Virus record (IMG/VR): IMGVR_UViG_3300025602_000002
Location: 166,718 to 205,518 of that record
DNA: 38,801 nt
Strand: one strand, 5' to 3'
From: a virus
Taxonomy: Duplodnaviria > Heunggongvirae > Uroviricota > Caudoviricetes
Shown: positions 5,471 through 38,801 of the stretch, one piece after another
Layout of the letters: the number at the start of each line of letters is the position of its first letter
How positions within the stretch are numbered: the stretch's first letter is position 1
The notes under the pieces: model-generated
What the model saw: only the letters and a program-made list of their open reading frames with translations
Told to the model about the DNA's origin: nothing
The model's database searches: none
Made by a program: the position numbers and the translations under genes

Positions 5471-5492
5471 ATGTGCTCTCCATTGTTAGGTG

Positions 5493-5564
5493 CAGGGACG
5501 GCAGGACTCGAACCCGCATTGCCGGTTTTGGAGACCGGAGCTCTACCAATTGAACTACGCCCCT
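5493..5564 (-). tRNA. trnW: tRNA-Trp (anticodon CCA)
   Basis: AGGGGCG-TA-GTTC-AATTGGTA-GAGC-T-CCGGT-CTCCAAA-ACCGG-CAAT-GCGGG-TTCGAGT-CCTGC-CGTCCCT-G; full cloverleaf, anticodon at 5531-5529, discriminator G, 3' CCA not encoded. Confidence 0.97.
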
Positions 5565-6611: not shown

Positions 6612-8651
6612 ATGGATATTCAATCACCATTAGGAACTGTAGTAGGGTTAGGAGCCTCAGCAGTCCCGTCGATTCCACAACCAAAAAGGCGTACTAAATT
6701 TAGAAAACTTATGAACGCCTCTTTAGTAGGAGCATCAAGTGCTATTTCTACGTTGGTGCCTGGCGCGCCCTTACAAAGTGCAGCAGCGGCGTCATTAGCT
6801 CCGGAAGGGAGAAAGGTGCAAGCAGCTCAAGCAGCCCTTACTGGGTCTATGTTAGGGTCTTTACCTGGGGCGGCACTGTTTACTAGACAATTTTTTGCAA
6901 GTAATAAAAAAAACATAGAAGATTTAAAAGGAAAAACATTCAACGACATAAGCGATGTTACAAAGGCCTATTTAAAAAATCAAAAGCAGTTAGCTAAAAA
7001 TTTTATAAAACAACCAGATTTACCATCAAAAGCTTTTCAATTATTTACTAATAAAATAAAAGGCACCTTAACAAAATTTAAAACATTCAAAGTACCAGCA
7101 GCCGCGTTATTAGCAGGAAGTGCTATAGGTTCTGGCATAGGATACCATAGGAGTACAAATATGAAGAAACAAGGAGAGTTTTCTAAAGCAGAACTATTAT
7201 TTAATAAAACTGCAGGACCGACTGCTGCAAGCGTGGCTGAGACAGGGCAGAAGGTATTAAAAAGAACTAAAGAGTTATTTTCTGGCAATAAGATGAAGTC
7301 TAAGATAGATGCAGCTAAAAAGAGCGGGAAAGAGCTTGACGCTAACGAGGCTGGTAAAGAAATTGTAAAAGTATACGCTACACGAGGTGCGGCGGGTACA
7401 GGCGCAGCAGCTGTATTAGCAGACGCAGTTATAGATAAAAAAGCGGAATATGTATTTTTAAAAGTTGCAATTAATGCGAAGGCATTAAAATTAAAGGCCA
7501 TAACAATTGCCCAGGAAGCGAAAGCAACCTCAGATGCGGTTGTTAAAGGAACTTCAAAAAGAGTAGTGAAAAATAAAAGTCTGGCACCCGTAGATGCCCG
7601 ATGGACCTCTTCTGGAGGTAAAGGAACCGCTGCGAATACTTCGAAATCTTCGAAAGCGTCAGCAGCTTCAACTACTTCGAAATCTACAAAATCTACAAAG
7701 GCTACAACTTCAACTGCTCCGGCAAAAACTGAGCAACCTGCGGCAAAGAAAGGAATAAGTTTAAATGCTAAACTTCTAGGGTTTGGCGCAGGAACAACTC
7801 TCGCAGGAATAGGGATAGGGCGCGCTAGTAAAACTGGATCGGTATCTGCTAGATATTTGGAACTAGTAAAAGGTAGCCGTCTAAAGGGCCTTAAACAAAG
7901 TAAAGCAGATTATATAAATAAATTAAAAACTGTGACCTCTAAACTTCATAAGGATCATCCTAAGTATACGGAACTATTAAAAAATGTAGAAAAAGAGATT
8001 AAAATCGAAACAGCTAAAGTAGTAGGAACAGTAGTAGGAACTCCTACAGCAGCAGCTACCTTAGTAGGCGGAGCTATGTCTTTAAATAAAAAAGCAGAAG
8101 CTGTAATGAGTAAATTAGGTAAAAAGTATCCTTATATAGATTTAGCACATGATCTAGAGTTGTCTAGAATAAGAGAAGAGCTACAAGCGCGAGCGCATGC
8201 TAGAGCCTTACAGGAAAGTCCTTCTGGCAAATGGAATAAAGAAAACGCTCCAGAGTATTCGGCGAGCTCAAAAAAGGAAAGAAGTAAACAATATAGGACT
8301 GCCACAATACCTAAAACAACGGGGGTCGGAGCAGCATTAGGAGCTTGATCAGGTACAAAATGGTTAGGTAAAAATCCTCCTAGTAATTATTGAGCTGTAA
8401 ACCCAGAACCGCTTTCAGTATTAAGAAAAATGAAAGGTTTAGGAAAAAATGTTGCAGTAGGAGCTGTAGCGGGTGCAGCGTTTGGAACAATGATAGCAGC
8501 TGCCGTAGGGAGCGATAAAGCTCAGCGAAAATATTTGAAAGTTAAAGGATTAAGAGGCGGTCAAGATCTTACCAGTAAACAGCTAAAAAAATATGTACCA
8601 GAGGCTTTAACAACGTCTAGATTAATTAATGATATAGACTACGCATCTTAA
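6612..8651 (+). CDS. Large basic Ala/Gly/Lys-rich putative virion protein (679 aa, 2 TGA=Trp)
   Basis: Track ORFs 6612-8348 and 8430-8651 are in frame and separated only by TGA codons; three internal tag copies; several GxxxG hydrophobic segments. Confidence 0.75.
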
Positions 8652-26271: not shown

Positions 26272-26299
26272 AGGGTCGGCTTTGCTGGCCCTTTTTTTT
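26272..26299 (+). terminator. Intrinsic terminator after capsid gene
   Basis: AGGGTCGGC-TTT-GCTGGCCCT followed by a T run. Confidence 0.9.
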
Positions 26300-26303
26300 A
26301 CCC

Positions 26304-26332
26304 TTGACATTTTCCTCCACAAAATCTATATT
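26304..26332 (+). promoter_or_regulatory. Sigma70-like promoter, predicted leaderless transcript
   Basis: TTGACA, 17 nt, TATATT, 5 nt, ATG 26338. Confidence 0.75.
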
Positions 26333-28718: not shown

Positions 28719-31700
28719 ATGAATATATATGGTCACACTTCCTTTGTCGGGCAAACTGGCTATGCCGCTCATGCTCGTGGATTTTTTAGAGCTTTAAATA
28801 ACTACTTACCAGTTAAATTAAGAAATTTTTCTGTAGGGCCTTCCTGAGATGGAGTATCTGATCGTCCTCATGAAAAGGAAACATATCTAACAGACATTGA
28901 TAAAGAAATGTTCATTAGGCAGACTTGTGACGAAGGTATGGATAGTGGGGTGTACAAAGGTATAGATTTTGAGATGTATAACGGAGTCGGAACTCTTCCT
29001 CCAGAAAATCCTGTTAACATAATTTTATCAGAAACAAACCACCATTACTGATTCGAAAATAGTTATCCCGGCTACAACATAGGCTATAATGTCTGAGAAA
29101 GCACTTTATATCCAAATGAGTTTTTTGAAGCACTATTACGAAATGAAATGTTATGAGTACCCACTAAATGGCAACGCGACTGTAGTATCGCCCAAGGATA
29201 CCCTGCTGATAGAGTATTTGTAGTTCCGGAGGCTGTGGACACCTCAATCTTTAACGTTAGTTCTGGAAAAAGACCAGACGAGTTTAAAGACGACCGATAT
29301 AAGTTTGTATTATTTGGCAGATGGGATCATAGAAAATCTACAACAGAAATTTTAAGAGCTTTTAGTGAAGAATTTGGTGCAAATGAACCTATCGATCTGG
29401 TGTGTTCTATCGAGAATCCCCACTCGGTGGATGGAATGAATTCTACTAAAGAACGTTTAGCTTTTCATAAAATAGAACATCCAAATATTAAAATTATACC
29501 TTTTTTACCTAGAAAAGATTACATTAATTATCTTAAATATGGAGATTGTTTTGTATCTTGCGCTAGATCGGAAGGGTGGAACTTACCCTTAATAGAAGCT
29601 ATTGCTTCTGGAATTCCCACCATATGCTCAAGCCATCCGGCACAATTAGATTTTGCGGGAGGAATCTCCCAACAAGTAAGGACTATAGATCAAAGACCTA
29701 TGAAGCCTTTTATGTTTGCTACAGAAGGAGTAGGATTATGAGATGAGCCTGACTTCGACCACTTAAAGGAAATAATGAGAAGCACTTATGAAAATAGAAA
29801 TATAAATAAGGGCCAGGCACTTCTTAAAGCTCCTAGAGTCAATAAATTTAGTTGACAGAATGCGGCATTAACTGCTGTTGATATATTAAATAATAATGTA
29901 AATGAAAATTATTATAAAGATTTTGGAAATTATATTACAGCTATAAAAAGTAATAATACTCCATTAATAAAAATAAATGGACCTATAAAAAAGCAATATA
30001 CTGTTGAATTTCTTGAAGATAATAAAGAAGTATATAAAGCAGAATTATCAAATGAAGATTCTTGGGCGTCTAGTTTTCCTATTTCAAAAGATACAAAAAT
30101 TAGGATAAATGGCGAAGATCAATTTTTGCTTGATAAGGTATCAAATAAAATACAAAGTACTGCTGCAAAATTAGGAGCGTATGTAGTAGGCGGTGATCTC
30201 AAATATATGCCTTATGTAGAGGCGTGTGTAAAAAGTTTATTAGAATTTTCAAAACTCCCAATAATTGTTTATGGATTTAATTGTGAAGTACCCTTTTCAT
30301 ATTCGAGAGTAATAAATAAAAAAATAGAATATTCTGGAGGCAAAGTAAACCAGGTAGGTCATGTAGATAGCCAAAACTATTTTGCTAGAATAGCGGCTGC
30401 ATTAGAAACTACAAAAAATGATGAATTTGATTATTATATTTTTTTAGATGGAGATATGGTAGTGTCGGAAAATATAGACCATCTTAATACTTATGTAGAT
30501 AAACTAAAACATTATCCACTATGTATGAGATATAGATACCCCTCTTTATTACATTTTAGAGAGGATGGGGATGGGCGAAGAGAAAAGAAGCATGGAGAAG
30601 AGCTTTGCGAACTATACGGGTGAGATACCGGTAATTTACCATATAGCGGTCACACAGTGGCCACAGGTATATTTATGTATGATAAAAGATCTCAACGTTT
30701 TTTTGAAGAAGTTCTCCGAGAAGAGGCTTATATAAGGAACATTAGTAATACAGATTCAGATGGTAAAATTTTTGTAGATGACACGGCATGCTCTGAAGAA
30801 CGAATTATTAACATGTTATTTTGAAAATATAAATATGACGAGTTTCTTCCTATAACTTGAATTTCTCCACATGACAATGTTATGGGCTTTAGCCAGGGGC
30901 ATATAGCCTCCTTAAATTATTCTTCTATGTTTTTTATGGAGAATTGGCCCAAAGAAATGGATGAGATTTACCCAAAAAGCGAAGCTAATATACTAGCGTA
31001 TCATCCAGAAATCGATAACAAAAATCCTAATACTGCTTCAAAAGTATTGAGGTTTCTTAAAAAAATTAAGAAAGAGATTGTAGTTATAAGCTCTTATACT
31101 GATACCGCTAGTAAAGAAAAATTATTAAAAGAACGCATAGCGCAAATTAAGGGGTTTGGATACGATATATTATTATCAACCCACTATGATGTTCCTCAGG
31201 AGATAAAAGATGAAGTAGATCACTATGTGTATGATCCAAATAATGAAATATTTGAAACTCCTGAATTTTTTTGAGGAGATCTTTCTGGAGTTTATTTTGA
31301 AACTTTTTATAGTAAAAATAAAAATCATTCTTATGCAGCGTTTACATTATTTAAAAATGCCTTTAATTACTGTAAAAACTTAGAGGTTGATACTATACAT
31401 TTTTTAAATTATGATGTTTTGTTAAAATACAATCCTTTCATTAAATTTAGAACTCTATTAAAGACCACTAATAGTTCAGGATGTTTTATTACAAGTCAAT
31501 CAAACGAAGACAATATAACTTTTGAAAATGTTAGAGTTCTTATGTTTTCAGTTACCACTAAATTTAAAGGATTTGAGGGAATAGATTCTTTACAAGAATA
31601 CTTAGAGCTTTCAGAAAGACAATTGGAGAAGTGACTTTATGAGCGTTTTAGAATGCAAAATATCTGAGATGATATTATAAAATTAGATGAAAAAACAGAA

Positions 31701-34631
31701 GCTTCTCAATATACAATAAAGGATTCCATAAGCTTGACAACTTATAAAGTTAATTTATTTGAAAAAAATAAAAATTTATTGGCCCTAATTTTTAGAGAAA
31801 GATTAGATGATAATGAAGTATTATTTAAATACACTTGCTATGAGGATACTAGAGATGTATTGGAGAGAGAGGCGCATATTAAATTTGAAACAGATAGTAA
31901 AGTGGTGGTGATTAATTTAGGAAATTTAAAAGATGTTAAGAATATTAGTCTTTTAGATTCTCATAATGGTGTGGAAATAACTAAGGAACTAGACGAAAAA
32001 ACTTTATCTGAAATAGAAAATAATATAATTAGGTTAGAAAAAGAAGTAGAAATGGTGGATCTAACAAGAAATGATATATTACAAGCTATAGAAGATAATA
32101 AACCTTTAAAAGAAGTAGTGGCTATTTTAGCCTATACTAACACCAAAGAAAAAATAGATGTTTTAAAAAAATGTATAAAGCGAATTAAGGAATTCGGATA
32201 TGATATTTTGTTAGTAACACACTACCCAGTTAGTTTAGAAATACAAAAATCTGTAGAACATTATGTATATGATAGTAACAATGAAATTATAGAAATCCCG
32301 GTTACTTTTTGATTTGATAACGAAGATTATTTTGTTAAATCTGTAAATCATGAAACTCCAAATCATTCTTATGCAGTATTTTCATTATTTAAAAATGCAG
32401 AAGTATACTGTAAATCACGAGATATAGACATAATTCATTTTTTAAACTACGATATGATTCCGCAAAAGGATTTATTTAAAATTCATAAAGAAGATTTAGG
32501 TAAAGGCGCTCATGGCTCATTTTACTACTATGATACAGATGAGGATTCTTTTGCTATGACATTTTTTTCAATTTCTAAAAATTTTACGGCGTTCAATAAT
32601 ATAAATAATTCCCAGCAATATTTTAAGGCTTCTTCTTCAAGAGATGGGGATTCTAGACTGTATCTAGAGCCTTGGATTTATGATCTTATTATTAAAACAG
32701 AGGGAGAGTCTAATCTAAAAATAAGAAAATATATAGATGTAGAAAAGGATTATGGAGTTAAGAATTTAATTACTGATGGAGCTCTTAATATATATGGATT
32801 TGTATATAAGAAAGAATTTAGGTTAGTATTAGGTAAACCAAATATTACTGATGATTCTAAATATTTGTTAAAATATAATGGTAAGGAAATTAATTTAGAT
32901 TTTTCAGGTTCTAAATTTTTTCATCATAATTTGGGATTAAGTTCTAAACTAAATAAATATCAAATATATAAAGATGGTAAATTATTCAAGAATGAGCTAG
33001 TTACAAAAGATTACAAAAAAAGAATAGAAAAATATAACACATTTGTCGTGAAGGCTGATACTAAACTTCCTAATAAGTTGATGATAGTAGCTCACCCGGA
33101 CGACGAACTTATTTTTGGAGGATACGACTTATTAAAAGACCCTGAAGATTGAAAAGTTATATCAGTAACGGGAAAAAGTAATCCAATTAGAGCGTATGAG
33201 TTTAGCAAAGCTATGGAAACTTTAGGAGTAGGAGAATATGCTTTATGAGATTTTCCTGACTCTTTATATGATAAATTTGATGAAAAATATTTAAGAAAAT
33301 TTATATTAGGTGAAACTTCTAGAAGATATTATAAAAAAATAGTAACTCATAATTCTAACGGAGAGTACGGGCATGTACAGCATAAATCTCTTCATGATGC
33401 TATGATAGAAATTAGTCCTAGAAATTTATATACTTTCTCGATAGGAGATAAAACTAAAATATATCCTTTAGAAGAAAAAAGAAAATTACTTGAAGTTTAT
33501 GAGAGTGAGGAAACAGAATTGCCTGGTTATTTAGATTATCTTTATTACGGGGAATCAACTTCTATATTAAATGGAAATATATCAGTTGACCATAATTTTG
33601 TAGATGGACCATTTGTAGAATTGTGAGGATCAGAATCTGACCATACTTATGATATAAAATTTATTGATCAAGATTTAGAAGAGGTTGTATATGAGAAAAT
33701 TGGAGTATCTGCTAATAGCTGAATTAAAGCAAGTAGAGTATATTTTACCAATTATATGATTACGGTACATAAAGGTGAAGAATTAGTGAACCAATACGCT
33801 TTTAATTGTGATAATAAACGAGTATTAATTGCGTTAGATAGCAGCTCTCTAGGAGATACTTTGGCTTGAATACCCTATGTTCAAAAGTTTAAAGAAAAAC
33901 ATAATTGCGAAGTAATAGTGTCTACATTCCATAATCATTTGCTTGATTATCCAGAATTAAAGTTTATTAGTCCGGGAACTACTGTTGACAATTTATACGC
34001 AAGCTATGTAGTAGGTATTAGAGAAGATGATGATTTCCTTCATAAAAGAAATCCATTTTCAATTCCTTTACAAGAGGTTGCTTGTGATATTTTAGGTCTC
34101 GAGTATGAAGAACTATTACCGCAAATGGCTAAGATTAAAGGACATACTGATATTGACGGTCCTTATGTATGTCTAGCGGCCCACTCCACAGCTCAGTGTA
34201 AATATTGAAATTATCCTGGAGGATGGCAAACTGTGGTAGACTATTTAAATTCAAAAGGTTATAAAGTAGTAGTTATAAGTAAAGAAGAAAGTGAATTAAA
34301 TGGCATAATCGACAAAACTAACTTGAATCTTACTGAAACAATGCGTATATTGAAACATGCTACATTCTTTATGGGATTGAGTTCAGGATTAGCTTGGCTA
34401 GCTTGAGCGTTAAAGGTGCCAGTATTAATGATTTCCGGCTTTACAGCGCCTTGGTATGAATTTAAATGTGTTAGAATGCATAAAGACACAGTATGTCATA
34501 ATTGTTTTAATGAGGAAAAATTTGATAGAGGCGATTGAAATTGATGTCCTAGAGGAAAGAATTTCGAGTGCTCTTCAAGTATTTTACCAGAGGAGGTAAT
34601 TAATACTATTTATGAAAATTGAAATATCTAA
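28719..34631 (+). CDS. Giant multidomain glycosylation protein (1970 aa, 23 TGA=Trp): GT4 + GT-A-like + duplicated domain + PIG-L-like deacetylase + TibC/GT9-like heptosyltransferase
   Basis: Eight track ORFs in one frame with no TAA/TAG between 28719 and 34629 (gaps checked codon by codon); NV(W)ES, GRWDHRKS, RSEGWNLPLIEA, FS(W); FLDGD; AHPDDE and THN..GEYGHVQH; SLGDTLA(W)IPY, GLSSGLAWLA(W), CHNC. Confidence 0.85.
31071..32453 (+). repeat. Duplicated 115-aa domain within the glycosylation protein
   Basis: 31071-31415 and 32109-32453 share GYDILL.THY, HYVYD.NNEI, F(W), NHSYA.F.LFKNA, IHFLNYD. Confidence 0.85.
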
Positions 34632-34992
34632 TGGAGAATTAATAGATAAGCTATCTATTCTTCAATTAAAAACTGAGAATTTTACTGACCCAGAAAAGAT
34701 TAAAAATGTACAAACAGAATTTGAGGCTTTACAACATAGCGTTGTAGAGCTATTGAATTTCTCATTGGATTCTGAAAGTTATATGAATCTTTATAATTGT
34801 AATGCAGAGCTATGGGATATAGAGGACCAACTGCGTAGAAAAGAACAATTAAAAGAGTTTGATGAGGAATTTATAAAATTAGCGCGAGCAGTGTATTACA
34901 CTAATGACACTAGAGCTAATTTAAAAAAAATAATTAACAACGAAACCAACTCTATGTTTATTGAGGAAAAAGAATACGTAAACTATAACTAG
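34612..34992 (+). CDS. DUF6165-like protein
   Basis: MKIEISNGELIDKLSILQLK...NAELWDIEDQLR...LARAVYYTNDTRA..K..IN. Confidence 0.75.
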   Translation: MKIEISNGELIDKLSILQLKTENFTDPEKIKNVQTEFEALQHSVVELLNFSLDSESYMNLYNCNAELWDIEDQLRRKEQLKEFDEEFIKLARAVYYTNDTRANLKKIINNETNSMFIEEKEYVNYN

Positions 34993-35006: not shown

Positions 35007-38000
35007 ATGTCAGGACAAATAAAAGCCAAACAAATATCGGATGTATATAGCCAATCACAGGCTAATGCAACATTTTCAGCAAAATCCCACAACGCATCCG
35101 CCGCACCACCAGCGTCCCCAATAACTGGACAGACTTGGTGAGATTCATCTAATGAAGTATTAAAAACATGAACAGGTAGTACATGAGTAGCCTCTGAAGG
35201 TACCTCAGGTACTTCTGGCTCAAGCGGAGCTAGCGGTGCTAGCGGTACTTCCGGATCAAGCGGAGCTAGCGGTGCTAGCGGTACTTCCGGAACTAGCGGT
35301 ACTTCTGGATCAAGCGGATCAGCAGGTTCAAGCGGATCTTCGGGGACTTCCGGAACTTCTGGAACTTCAGGATCAAGCGGAACTTCAGGATCAAGCGGTA
35401 CGAGTGGTACAAGTGGTACGAGTGGTACTTCAGGTTCAAGCGGTTCAGCAGGTTCAAGCGGTTCAAGCGGTACGAGTGGTACTTCTGGATCAAGCGGGAC
35501 TTCAGGAACTTCAGGATCAAGCGGATCATCAGGATCAAGCGGAACTTCGGGAACTTCTGGTTCAAGCGGGACTTCAGGAACTTCTGGTTCAAGCGGGTCA
35601 GCAGGATCAAGCGGTTCTTCCGGAACTTCCGGATCAAGCGGTACGAGTGGAACTTCAGGATCTTCTGGAGAGAAAGGAGTTACTGGAGATTCAGGATCAA
35701 GTGGATCAAGCGGAACCTCAGGCTCTTCTGGAGCTAAAGGAGACGCTGGAACGAGTGGTTCAAGCGGAACTTCTGGTTCAAGCGGAACTTCAGGATCAAG
35801 CGGTACTGGCGGTACTTCTGGGTCTTCTGGAGGAGTTGGAACGAGCGGTACTTCAGGATCAAGCGGAGCAGCAGGAACTTCAGGTTCAAGTGGAGATACG
35901 GGGGTGCCCGGAGCTTCAGGGTCAAGTGGTTCTTCCGGAACCTCAGGATCAAGCGGTACGAGTGGTACTTCGGGGTCAAGTGGAACTAGCGGTACTAGTG
36001 GTACTTCGGGTTCGAGTGGATCAAGCGGTTCAAGCGGTTCAAGCGGTACGAGTGGTACTTCAGGTTCAAGCGGTACGAGTGGTACTTCAGGTTCAAGCGG
36101 ATCAAGCGGTTCAAGTGGATCAAGCGGTACGAGTGGTACTTCCGGAACTAGCGGAACTTCGGGATCGAGTGGAGCAGCTGGAACTTCAGGAACAAGCGGT
36201 TCAAGCGGAATAGACGGAACTTCCGGGTCAAGTGGTACGAGCGGTATAGGCGGAACTTCCGGATCTTCAGGAGGTGCAGGTACAAGTGGTACTTCTGGAT
36301 TAAGCGGTACGAGTGGTACGAGCGGTTCTTCTGGGACTTCCGGATCAAGCGGGACTTCTGGATCAAGCGGTTCAAGCGGTTCAAGCGGCACAAGCGGTAC
36401 TTCCGGTTTAAGCGGAACGTCAGGTTCAAGCGGTACAAGTGGAACTTCAGGATCAAGCGGAACTTCAGGATTAAGCGGAACTTCAGGATCAAGCGGTACA
36501 AGTGGAACTTCAGGTTCAAGCGGATCAGCAGGATCAAGCGGTTCAAGCGGATCAAGCGGATCAAGCGGTACGAGTGGTACTTCGGGGTCAAGTGGAACTA
36601 GCGGTACGAGCGGTACTTCGGGCTCAAGCGGGGATAGTGGTACGAGTGGTACTTCAGGGTCAAGTGGGACTTCAGGAATTAGCGGTACTTCAGGGTCAAG
36701 TGGGACTTCAGGAATTAGCGGTACTTCAGGATCAAGCGGAACTAGCGGTACTAGCGGTACTTCTGGGTCAAGCGGGACTAGCGGTACTAGCGGTACTTCT
36801 GGGTCAAGCGGGACTGCGGGTACAAGCGGTACTTCTGGATCAAGTGGAACTAGCGGTACAAGTGGAACCTCAGGGTCAAGCGGTTCAAGCGGTTCAAGTG
36901 GAACTAGCGGTTCAAGCGGAACTTCAGGAACTTCTGGAACTTCAGGTTCAAGCGGAACTAGCGGTACGAGTGGTACCTCTGGATCAAGCGGTTCAAGCGG
37001 TTCAAGCGGTGTAAGCGGCACTTCCGGATCAAGCGGTACGAGTGGTACTTCAGGTTCAAGCGGTTCAGCAGGTTCAAGCGGTTCAAGTGGAACTTCAGGA
37101 ACTAGCGGAACTTCAGGATCAAGCGGAACCTCAGGAACTTCAGGATCAAGCGGTACGAGTGGAACTTCGGGATCTTCTGGAGAAAAAGGAGTTATTGGGG
37201 ATTCAGGATCTAGCGGGTCAAGTGGGACCTCGGGCTCTTCTGGAGCGAAAGGAGACGCTGGAACAAGCGGTTCAAGCGGAACTTCCGGAACTAGCGGAAC
37301 TTCAGGTTCAAGCGGTACTGGCGGTACCTCTGGGTCTTCTGGAGGAGTTGGAACTAGCGGAACTTCAGGATCAAGCGGAGCTGCAGGAACTTCCGGTTCA
37401 AGCGGTACTTCCGGTTCAAGCGGAACTTCCGGAACTAGCGGAACTTCGGGTTCAAGTGGAACTTCCGGAACTAGCGGAACCTCAGGATCAAGCGGTATAA
37501 GTGGAACTTCAGGATCAAGCGGTTCAAGCGGTTCAAGCGGATCAAGCGGAACCTCAGGATCAAGCGGTACAAGTGGTACGAGTGGTACTTCAGGTTCAAG
37601 CGGTACGAGTGGTACAAGTGGTACTAGCGGGTCGTCTGGAACTAGCGGGTCAAGTGGAACTTCCGGTTCAAGTGGTACGAGCGGAACCTCAGGATCTTCT
37701 GGAGAAAAAGGGGTTACGGGGGATTCAGGTACAAGCGGCTCAAGTGGAACTAGCGGTACAAGTGGAACTTCAGGATCAAGCGGAACTAGCGGTACGAGTG
37801 GTACTAGCGGGTCATCTGGAACAAGCGGATCAAGCGGAACTTCAGGAACTTCTGGAACTTCAGGATCAAGCGGAACTTCAGGAACTTCTGGAACTTCCGG
37901 GTCAAGCGGAACTTCAGGAACTTCAGGAACTTCAGGTTCAAGTGGATCTGCAGGATCAAGTGGTTCTTCCGGAACTTCAGGATCAAGCGGTACAAGCGGT

Positions 38001-38801
38001 ACTAGTGGTACTTCGGGGTCAAGCGGTACAAGTGGTACGAGTGGTACTTCAGGTTCAAGCGGAACTAGTGGTACTTCTGGGTCAAGCGGTTCAGCAGGTT
38101 CAAGCGGTTCAAGCGGAACCTCTGGTTCAAGTGGTACTTCAGGCTCAAGTGGAACTTCAGGTACAAGCGGAACTTCAGGTTCAAGCGGAACTTCAGGTAC
38201 AAGCGGAACTTCTGGGTCAAGCGGTTCAGCAGGTTCAAGCGGTTCTTCCGGAACCTCAGGTTCAAGCGGTACGAGTGGTACTTCAGGATCAAGCGGTACA
38301 AGTGGAACTTCAGGATCAAGCGGAACTTCAGGATCAAGCGGAACTTCAGGAACTTCAGGATCAAGCGGAACTTCAGGAACTTCAGGTTCTAGCGGAACCT
38401 CCGGGTCAAGTGGAACTTCAGGAACTTCAGGTTCAAGTGGATCGGCAGGTTCAAGCGGTTCAAGCGGAACTTCGGGATCAAGCGGAACTTCAGGAACTTC
38501 AGGTTCAAGCGGTTCAAGCGGATCATCAGGATCAAGCGGAACTTCCGGGTCAAGCGGAACTTCAGGAACTTCAGGTTCAAGCGGATCAGCAGGATCAAGT
38601 GGCTCTTCCGGAACCTCCGGGTCAAGCGGTACGAGTGGAACTTCCGGGTCAAGCGGTACGAGCGGAACCTCCGGATCAAGTGGTTCAAGCGGTTCAAGCG
38701 GTTCAAGCGGTTCAAGCGGTTCAAGCGGAACGTCTGGATCATCTGGTAACACCGGAAATGCAGCCGGACATGTCCAGTACAACTTTGACAGCTCAACAAC
38801 T
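35007..38801 (+). CDS. Collagen-like tail/virion fibre, partial (at least 1265 aa, 3 TGA=Trp)
   Basis: ATG 35007; PASPITGQTW(W)DSSNEVLKT(W)TGST(W) fibre motif, then Gly-X-Y repeat; open at the window end. Confidence 0.88.
35199..38762 (+). repeat. Gly-X-Y repeat, 396 triplets by length, mainly G-S-S and G-T-S
   Basis: 9-nt periodicity (GGN-TCA-AGC, GGA-ACT-TCA); Gly every third codon, mirrored by Pro every third residue in the antisense shadow ORF. Confidence 0.95.

Follow-up and report, generated by a model that had tools for sequence, protein, structure and literature searches.

TibC and Aah, protein O-glycosyltransferases of the BAHT family, modify Ser residues in repetitive surface proteins, as the initial annotation of the DNA discussed here had pointed out, and TibC, which leaves Thr unmodified, does so in the cytoplasm and accepts peptides as well (PMC4358343). 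Viral collagen-like proteins usually depend on Lys-Gly-Asp (KGD) salt-bridge triplets, at ~13% of their triplets (PMC11923368, Nature Communications). The peptide (Gly-Pro-Thr)10 is a random coil until its Thr residues are galactosylated, and Pro-poor Thr collagen peptides form a triple helix only with glycosylation (PMC11923368). Here, we analyse a 38,801-nt stretch (the window) of the IMG/VR virus record IMGVR_UViG_3300025602_000002, in which the gene of a very long, almost proline-free Ser/Thr collagen-like fibre lies close behind the gene of a multi-domain enzyme that ends in a TibC/Aah-type domain. Judging from the sequences, we consider it probable that the two belong to a virion-fibre glycosylation cassette, in which the enzyme O-glycosylates the fibre on Ser.

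The part of the fibre gene inside the window occupies positions 35007–38801 of the plus strand and matches Pfam Collagen (PF01391) with 516.6 bits. It begins with a non-collagen part of 64 aa (35007–35198), whose Trp-rich motif (W-W-D ... W ... W) immediately adjoins the collagen; in the fibres of two other loci (L001 and L027), too, the collagen stretches are preceded by similar aromatic motifs, and the weak PHROG matches of this N-terminus are to PHROGs with no assigned function. The collagen that follows consists of 396 Gly-X-Y triplets without a single interruption (35199–38762), which is exactly the count given in the initial annotation, and its 1188 residues at 0.286 nm per residue return the same length of ~340 nm. 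Saturation with Ser and Thr, claimed there as well, is borne out at both variable positions: X is Thr in 196 triplets, Ser in 162 and another residue in 38, while Y is Ser in 361 (91%), Ala in 18 and another residue in 17. The commonest triplets are GTS (193 of 396) and GSS (152). Known collagen stabilisers are scarce, with one Pro and two KGD triplets in the entire run, and the behaviour of the Pro-poor Thr peptides mentioned above agrees with the earlier view that such a sequence is a poor triple-helix former unless modified.

Gly is kept at all 396 of its positions, against ~73 departures from the Ser/Thr consensus at X and Y together, which argues for selection on the three-residue periodicity. 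Also, the longest exact DNA repeat in the window part of the gene is only 53 nt and codon use is scrambled; the shortness of this repeat makes an assembly artefact an unlikely source of the length and argues against recent slippage. In a ranking of the 210 fetched viral loci whose runs reach 20 triplets or more, this run comes third, after runs of 785 triplets (locus L131, record G039) and 429 triplets (L132, record G040). Both of these longer runs are Ser/Thr-rich, and their records encode large fusions of the TibC-like kind, whose open frames measure 1527 and 1458 aa, respectively.

The fibre frame depends on the genetic code. Under table 11, the plus-strand frame from position 35007 meets three early stops, all of them TGA and all within the N-terminal non-collagen part, and the 8 kb upstream of the fibre is broken into short open reading frames (ORFs). 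With TGA read as Trp, the frame stays open from the ATG at 35007 to the window end, and a single frame of 1970 aa containing 23 TGA codons opens at 28719–34631 (plus strand). The TGA codons of this second gene align with conserved Trp residues of TibC, including Trp-114, Trp-232 and the sugar-binding Trp-305; because of this match, we read TGA as Trp and rejected Gly. Table 11 and a code with TAG as Gln were rejected too, since the genes stay closed under either. The repeat also produces, as a mirror artefact, a minus-strand ORF of 1280 aa over the fibre, which is rich in Pro, Glu, Val and Leu and has no family match. The viral record to which the window belongs measures 141.8 kb, at an estimated completeness of 67%, and encodes a major head protein, a head protease, a helicase and the large subunit of a terminase; its source is a large uncultured phage using TGA as Trp in its late genes. 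In the left arm of the window, at 5492–5564 on the minus strand, lies an ordinary tRNA-Trp with anticodon CCA, which cannot read TGA.

The last domain of the 1970-aa enzyme (aa 1618–1964; 33570–34610, plus strand) is of the TibC/Aah protein O-glycosyltransferase type. It scores 265.3 bits against TIGR04414, the BAHT model, for which the curated NCBIfam cut-off is 200, and 244.6 bits in a six-frame search of the genome; the structure of TibC (PDB 4rap) is matched at 3.7e-47, and a weak TIGR02193 match was found in addition. The neighbouring glycosyltransferase of the initial annotation is real, and is encoded in one frame. In TibC, Asp-110 is the catalytic base, and Thr-226, Lys-230 and Trp-305 contact the beta-phosphate and the sugar (PMC4358343). 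All four residues are identical in the enzyme and invariant in a seven-sequence alignment of phage homologues. Likewise, the four Cys of the iron finger (Cys-339, 342, 358 and 370) all align, in the pattern C-x2-C ... W-C-P-R ... F-E-C, and position 300 is Ser, as in Aah. By sequence, the domain is a relative of the BAHT family, an assignment that leaves aside its donor nucleotide-sugar and its oligomer state. The large gene near the enzyme encodes a collagen-like fibre and not an autotransporter passenger, a statement about the neighbouring gene only, as the rest of the record was not searched for autotransporters.

The association between such fibres and such enzymes extends well beyond this locus. 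A pattern scan for Ser/Thr collagens returned at least 120 viral stretches, and we assembled a non-redundant set of 91 IMG/VR records in which 10 or more Gly-(Ser/Thr-type)2 triplets stand in a row. TIGR04414 matched in 33 of these 91 records, in 32 of them above the cut-off. Records found with a general collagen pattern served as comparison: the match was present in none of 43 with a Ser/Thr content below 0.3, in none of 30 with a content of 0.3–0.6, and in one of four at 0.6 or above. Set against the combined 0 of 73 with a content below 0.6, the 33 of 91 give a Fisher p of 1.8e-10. The initial annotation had named as damaging to its proposal the case that such collagens commonly occur without the glycosyltransferase genes. 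Near-complete records speak otherwise, as six of the seven Ser/Thr-pattern records that are at least 90% complete carry the enzyme, as does the one positive record of the general sample, a complete 166-kb genome.

The pairing also holds when the enzyme is taken as the starting point. A profile of the TibC-like domain found at least 239 stretches in IMG/VR, from which 86 loci were fetched and dereplicated into 54 clusters. We looked for a Pro-poor, Ser/Thr-rich run of at least eight triplets within 10 kb of the enzyme, regarding a locus as well flanked if it offered at least 15 kb of DNA; 19 of the 24 well-flanked dereplicated loci hold such a collagen. It lies on the strand of the enzyme in 24 of 25 cases, at a median distance of 4.8 kb and a minimum of 363 nt. 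Of five checked loci that seemed to be exceptions, three, representing two well-flanked clusters, have such a collagen farther off in the same record. Records with the pairing measure anywhere from 10 kb to 548 kb, their gene fusions differ and their enzymes share only 32–47% identity. TibC-like genes range across the phages from free proteins of ~398 aa to fusions of 700–1600 aa, and the 1970-aa enzyme is the largest seen. In three unrelated contigs (L027, L083 and L001), genes for GT4/GT8-like and then GT-A/TibC-like proteins stand separate and adjacent, followed directly by a tail-fibre-like gene with GSS/GTS repeats, one of which ends in the usual tail-fibre chaperone domain. Together with the sequences and the domain identities, this statistical pairing across phages is what the analysis establishes directly.

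Bacterial chromosomes gave a different picture. The closest chromosomal relatives of the phage TibC-like domain occur in Caballeronia, Paraburkholderia, Pandoraea, Gluconobacter, Asaia and rumen Selenomonadales. A short GSS run within 10 kb turned up at only one of 80 bacterial loci (L320–L399), most of which are from Burkholderiaceae, Acetobacteraceae and Selenomonadales. The few bacterial loci that were inspected had neither collagen-like nor obvious autotransporter neighbours. The enzyme–collagen pairing looks phage-specific in this sample.

Ahead of the TibC/Aah-type domain, five more domains can be recognised in the 1970-aa protein. An N-terminal GT4 domain with the GT-B fold (aa 1–400; 28719–29918) matches Pfam Glycos_transf_1 at 7.4e-10 and has homologues of 42–47% identity in 19 of the 86 TibC-like phage loci. 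For aa 400–1445, a Pfam search gave no match even at E = 1, and the middle domains were identified solely through homologues from public phage loci. Among them is a GT8-like domain of the GT-A fold (aa 486–770; 30174–31028), with a DGD motif and homologues in 11 loci; the best fold matches of a homologue model are glycogenin, Skp1 galactosyltransferase and UGGT, and because this model is poor (predicted local distance difference test score, pLDDT, 58.7), the assignment is tentative. It is followed by two tandem GT-A-fold domains (aa 771–1130 and 1131–1440; together 31029–33038) that are 41% identical to each other (internal blastp 1.3e-43) and have tblastn matches in 24–33 loci. A model of homologues of this domain (pLDDT 78) matches nucleotide-diphospho-sugar transferases, and in other phages the same GT-A domain forms the N-terminal half of ~705-aa fusions with a TibC-like domain. 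A PIG-L/LmbE-type de-N-acetylase domain (aa 1454–1565; 33078–33413; PF02585, 41.6 bits against a cut-off of 28.2) precedes the TibC/Aah-type domain. It is absent from all 86 related loci and hints at a de-acetylated amino sugar in the glycan of this phage. Peculiar to this locus are the six-domain fusion, the PIG-L domain and the recoding of TGA. Nothing points to cleavage of the 1970-aa protein, which is better called a multi-domain fusion than the polyprotein of the initial annotation.

The gene order around the enzyme is compact. A small gene of the DUF6165 family (34612–34992, plus strand; PF19662, 4.6e-14) sits between enzyme and fibre, overlapping the end of the enzyme gene by 20 nt and leaving 14 nt from its stop to the fibre ATG, and a GGAG lies 7 nt upstream of that ATG. 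Between the enzyme start and the fibre coding start, our scan lists one weak terminator-like hairpin on the plus strand (34725–34751), inside the DUF6165 gene and with a poor T tail. Upstream, after the major head gene, the region 26272–26332 (plus strand) holds a strong terminator-like hairpin of 9 pairs followed by T8, and then a promoter-like site, TTGACA-17-TATATT, with 11 of 12 matches. A transcription boundary likely lies here, ahead of the block that the fibre closes, and the enzyme, DUF6165 and fibre genes are probably transcribed together. Of 48 phage records with the enzyme, 6 have a DUF6165 gene no more than ~3 kb from the TibC-like gene, and in several records (L003, L004, G038 and G040 among them) the two are direct neighbours; a seventh match, broken up by stop codons and ~25 kb distant, does not reach the family cut-off. 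The DUF6165 protein may have an accessory role in the cassette.

Among the proteins encoded in the 142 kb of the record, the fibre alone is massive and Ser/Thr-rich. Aside from it, the sole Ser/Thr-rich stretch in a plausible gene of the record is a low-complexity linker, rich in Ser, Thr and Lys, in a 679-aa protein encoded at 6612–8651 of the window (plus strand), a conceivable second glycosylation target. Beyond the 396 triplets, the fibre gene enters a globular inter-collagen module of ~120 aa, of which the first residues fall inside the window (38763–38801). At least 817 nt more of the gene lie in the record, comprising the rest of this module, 49 more triplets and a restart of the module, before the record ends inside a 127-nt exact repeat. 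The full length of the fibre exceeds the part read, and its C-terminus lies beyond the record. Fibres related to this one carry trimeric tail-fibre chaperone domains at their C-terminal end. The opposite end of the record carries another collagen-like fibre gene on the same strand (locus L319; G000:C1:137481-141836, minus strand). It runs into the record from beyond that end, with the 21-residue unit GLTGPDGNVGAQGTVGDTGIT repeated exactly at least 11 times. The encoded protein includes proline, is built of two collagen blocks followed by ~600 aa of globular sequence at the C-terminus, and has matches among the tail-fibre PHROGs. As the 141.8-kb record breaks off within collagen repeats on either side, the two collagen genes could even be a single gene, if its ends join.

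In the mechanism that we propose, the C-terminal TibC/Aah-type domain would prime the Ser hydroxyls of the Gly-X-Ser repeats with a first sugar in the host cytoplasm. The GT4, GT8-like and two GT-A domains would then lengthen the glycan, and the PIG-L domain would de-N-acetylate an amino sugar. The product would be a densely O-glycosylated rod of several hundred nanometres, which would owe to its glycan stiffness, solubility and possibly a triple helix, as well as its surface chemistry. As the repeat is nearly without proline and salt-bridge triplets, the glycan would most likely act as a stiffener or solubiliser. That the BAHT family acts on Ser and not Thr, and that Ser fills 361 of the 396 Y positions, we count in favour of the fibre as acceptor. 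We infer this acceptor role from the observations above, and likewise the donor sugar, the tasks of the remaining domains and the consequences for the fibre. The interpretation in the initial annotation is partly supported: its central proposal, that the neighbouring enzyme glycosylates this fibre, is strongly backed by the co-occurrence of GSS/GTS collagens with TibC-like glycosyltransferases, a test suggested there.

The transferred sugar is another matter. TibC Arg-286 contacts adenine N1 and underlies ADP-sugar specificity, and its mutation abolishes or largely diminishes heptosylation of TibA and AIDA-I (PMC4358343). In the enzyme this residue is Thr, and the alignment column reads R/T/I/S/M across the phage homologues; moreover, the heptose-pathway genes gmhA and hldE were not found in the 142 kb of the record, which is 67% complete. 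With the adenine-reading Arg replaced by Thr and neither of these genes in the record, heptose as the transferred sugar, part of the earlier claim, is doubtful.

Several further points weigh, like the loss of Arg-286, against glycosylation of the fibre by this enzyme. The beta-hairpin thumb of the TibC/Aah-type domain is 9 residues shorter than that of TibC, with the hydrophobic pair kept at the Phe-265/Val-266 position. The known acceptors of TibC are beta-helical autotransporters, very unlike a collagen fibre in shape. The late-operon neighbourhood of the two genes could mirror shared timing and not an enzyme–substrate relation. Additionally, 58 of the 91 Ser/Thr-collagen records are without a TibC-like gene, most of these being small fragments, and one 58-kb record that is 98% complete (G011) has a Ser/Thr collagen and no such gene, which indicates that the enzyme is not obligatory for fibres of this kind. 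The pairing is strong, yet not obligatory.

A more far-reaching version of the proposal, which we hold only tentatively, is that dense O-glycosylation of Y-position Ser, begun by a BAHT enzyme that has changed its acceptor from autotransporter beta-helices to collagen, replaces hydroxyproline and salt bridges, and allows proline-free triple helices hundreds of nanometres long. The main alternative is that the fibre is glycosylated and forms no triple helix, being instead a flexible, mucin-like bottle-brush spacer whose periodicity stems from expansion of a 9-nt repeat. Ser/Gly-rich sequences are typical disordered linkers, and the repeat holds a single Pro and almost no charged pairs; Thr collagen peptides, too, stay coils without sugar (PMC11923368). 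However, the invariance of Gly alongside ~73 substitutions at X and Y, and a longest exact repeat of 53 nt, point to selection and not to recent slippage, and the related fibres end in chaperone domains typical of trimeric tail fibres. On balance, we regard a spacer of this kind as unlikely, if deserving of serious attention.

The remaining two explanations dispute the modification of the fibre by the enzyme, and both are weaker. Phages are well known to encode glycosyltransferases that change the surface glycans of their hosts, and the enzyme could act on a non-fibre substrate, either another protein of the virion or, for superinfection exclusion, the lipopolysaccharide or capsule of the host, its adjacency to the fibre reflecting only that both are late genes. 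That GT9-fold enzymes are mostly lipopolysaccharide heptosyltransferases, the weak TIGR02193 match and the lost Arg-286 would all fit such a role. Yet the match above cut-off is to the protein-specific BAHT model, with the iron finger present, and the association is confined to Ser/Thr-saturated collagens and absent for other collagens, with the nearest collagen on the same strand in 24 of 25 loci; the other Ser/Thr-rich candidate of the record is just the short Ser/Thr/Lys linker in the gene at 6612. These observations leave a non-fibre target with a small share of the probability. Smaller still is the chance that the fibre is unmodified, its triple helix forming unaided, held by the flanking trimerising modules and by Ser/Thr hydration, and that the pairing is a lineage effect. 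Globular modules do interrupt and flank the collagen stretches, and a TibC-like gene is missing from at least one near-complete phage record that includes a Ser/Thr collagen. Nevertheless, the known stabilisers are all but missing from the 396 triplets, and the size range of the records, the varied fusions and the 32–47% identity of the enzymes do not describe one narrow lineage; we therefore find an unmodified fibre very improbable.

Glycosylation of phage virion proteins has barely been studied, and the one role known for BAHT enzymes is to glycosylate bacterial adhesins. If fibre glycosylation by the enzyme is correct, the conserved phage cassette would define a new class of BAHT acceptor, the Ser/Thr-only collagen, and would account for the existence of collagen-like rods without proline or salt bridges. 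It would also offer a simple two-gene system for glycan-stabilised, hydroxyproline-free collagen, and may be relevant to the way in which large aquatic phages locate, or attach to, hosts or particles. Should the more far-reaching version hold, it would amount to a third, enzyme-dependent way of stabilising collagen, widespread in environmental phages.

Glycosylated collagen-like proteins are known from other settings. In Mimivirus, collagen-like proteins and the machinery that glycosylates the surface fibrils are alike encoded by the virus, as is proposed here for the phage; it differs in being a eukaryotic giant virus, with glycosylation on hydroxylysine and on fibril proteins by unrelated enzymes. 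BclA is a prokaryotic collagen-like filament in which hydroxyl residues of the repeat carry O-linked oligosaccharides added by dedicated glycosyltransferases. In contrast to the phage fibre, its repeat is mostly Gly-Pro-Thr and is glycosylated on Thr, its enzymes are unrelated to TibC, and it forms a spore nap and not a virion fibre. As cited in PMC11923368, BclA of the Bacillus anthracis exosporium is a glycosylated collagen-like spore protein, and the cuticle collagen of the vent worm Riftia (Mann 1996), together with the peptide (Gly-Pro-Thr(Gal))10, shows that O-glycosylation at the Y position can replace hydroxyproline as a stabiliser of the triple helix. There, the glycosylated residue is Thr, proline is still present at X and the origin is animal, whereas the candidate residue here is Ser.

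The known systems closest to the present locus are the TibC–TibA and Aah–AIDA-I systems of E. coli (BAHT family; PDB 4rap/4rb4; PMC4358343). The catalytic domains are homologous, sharing the catalytic Asp, the Thr, Lys and Trp and the four-Cys iron finger, and in E. coli, as in the phage, the enzyme gene lies beside the gene of a long, repetitive, Ser-rich surface protein, there modified on multiple Ser residues in the cytoplasm. The candidate acceptor in the phage is a collagen-like Gly-X-Ser repeat and not a beta-helix, and the setting is a phage late operon. TibC is a free protein of 406 aa that forms ring-shaped dodecamers, whereas the phage domain comes sixth and last in a fusion of 1970 aa; since it has not kept Arg-286 and has a shorter thumb, its donor and oligomer state may differ from those of TibC. 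Our literature searches for an enzyme–collagen pairing in phages found no paper describing one. The locus combines a known enzyme family and a known principle, the glycan-stabilised collagen, on a new acceptor in a new setting.

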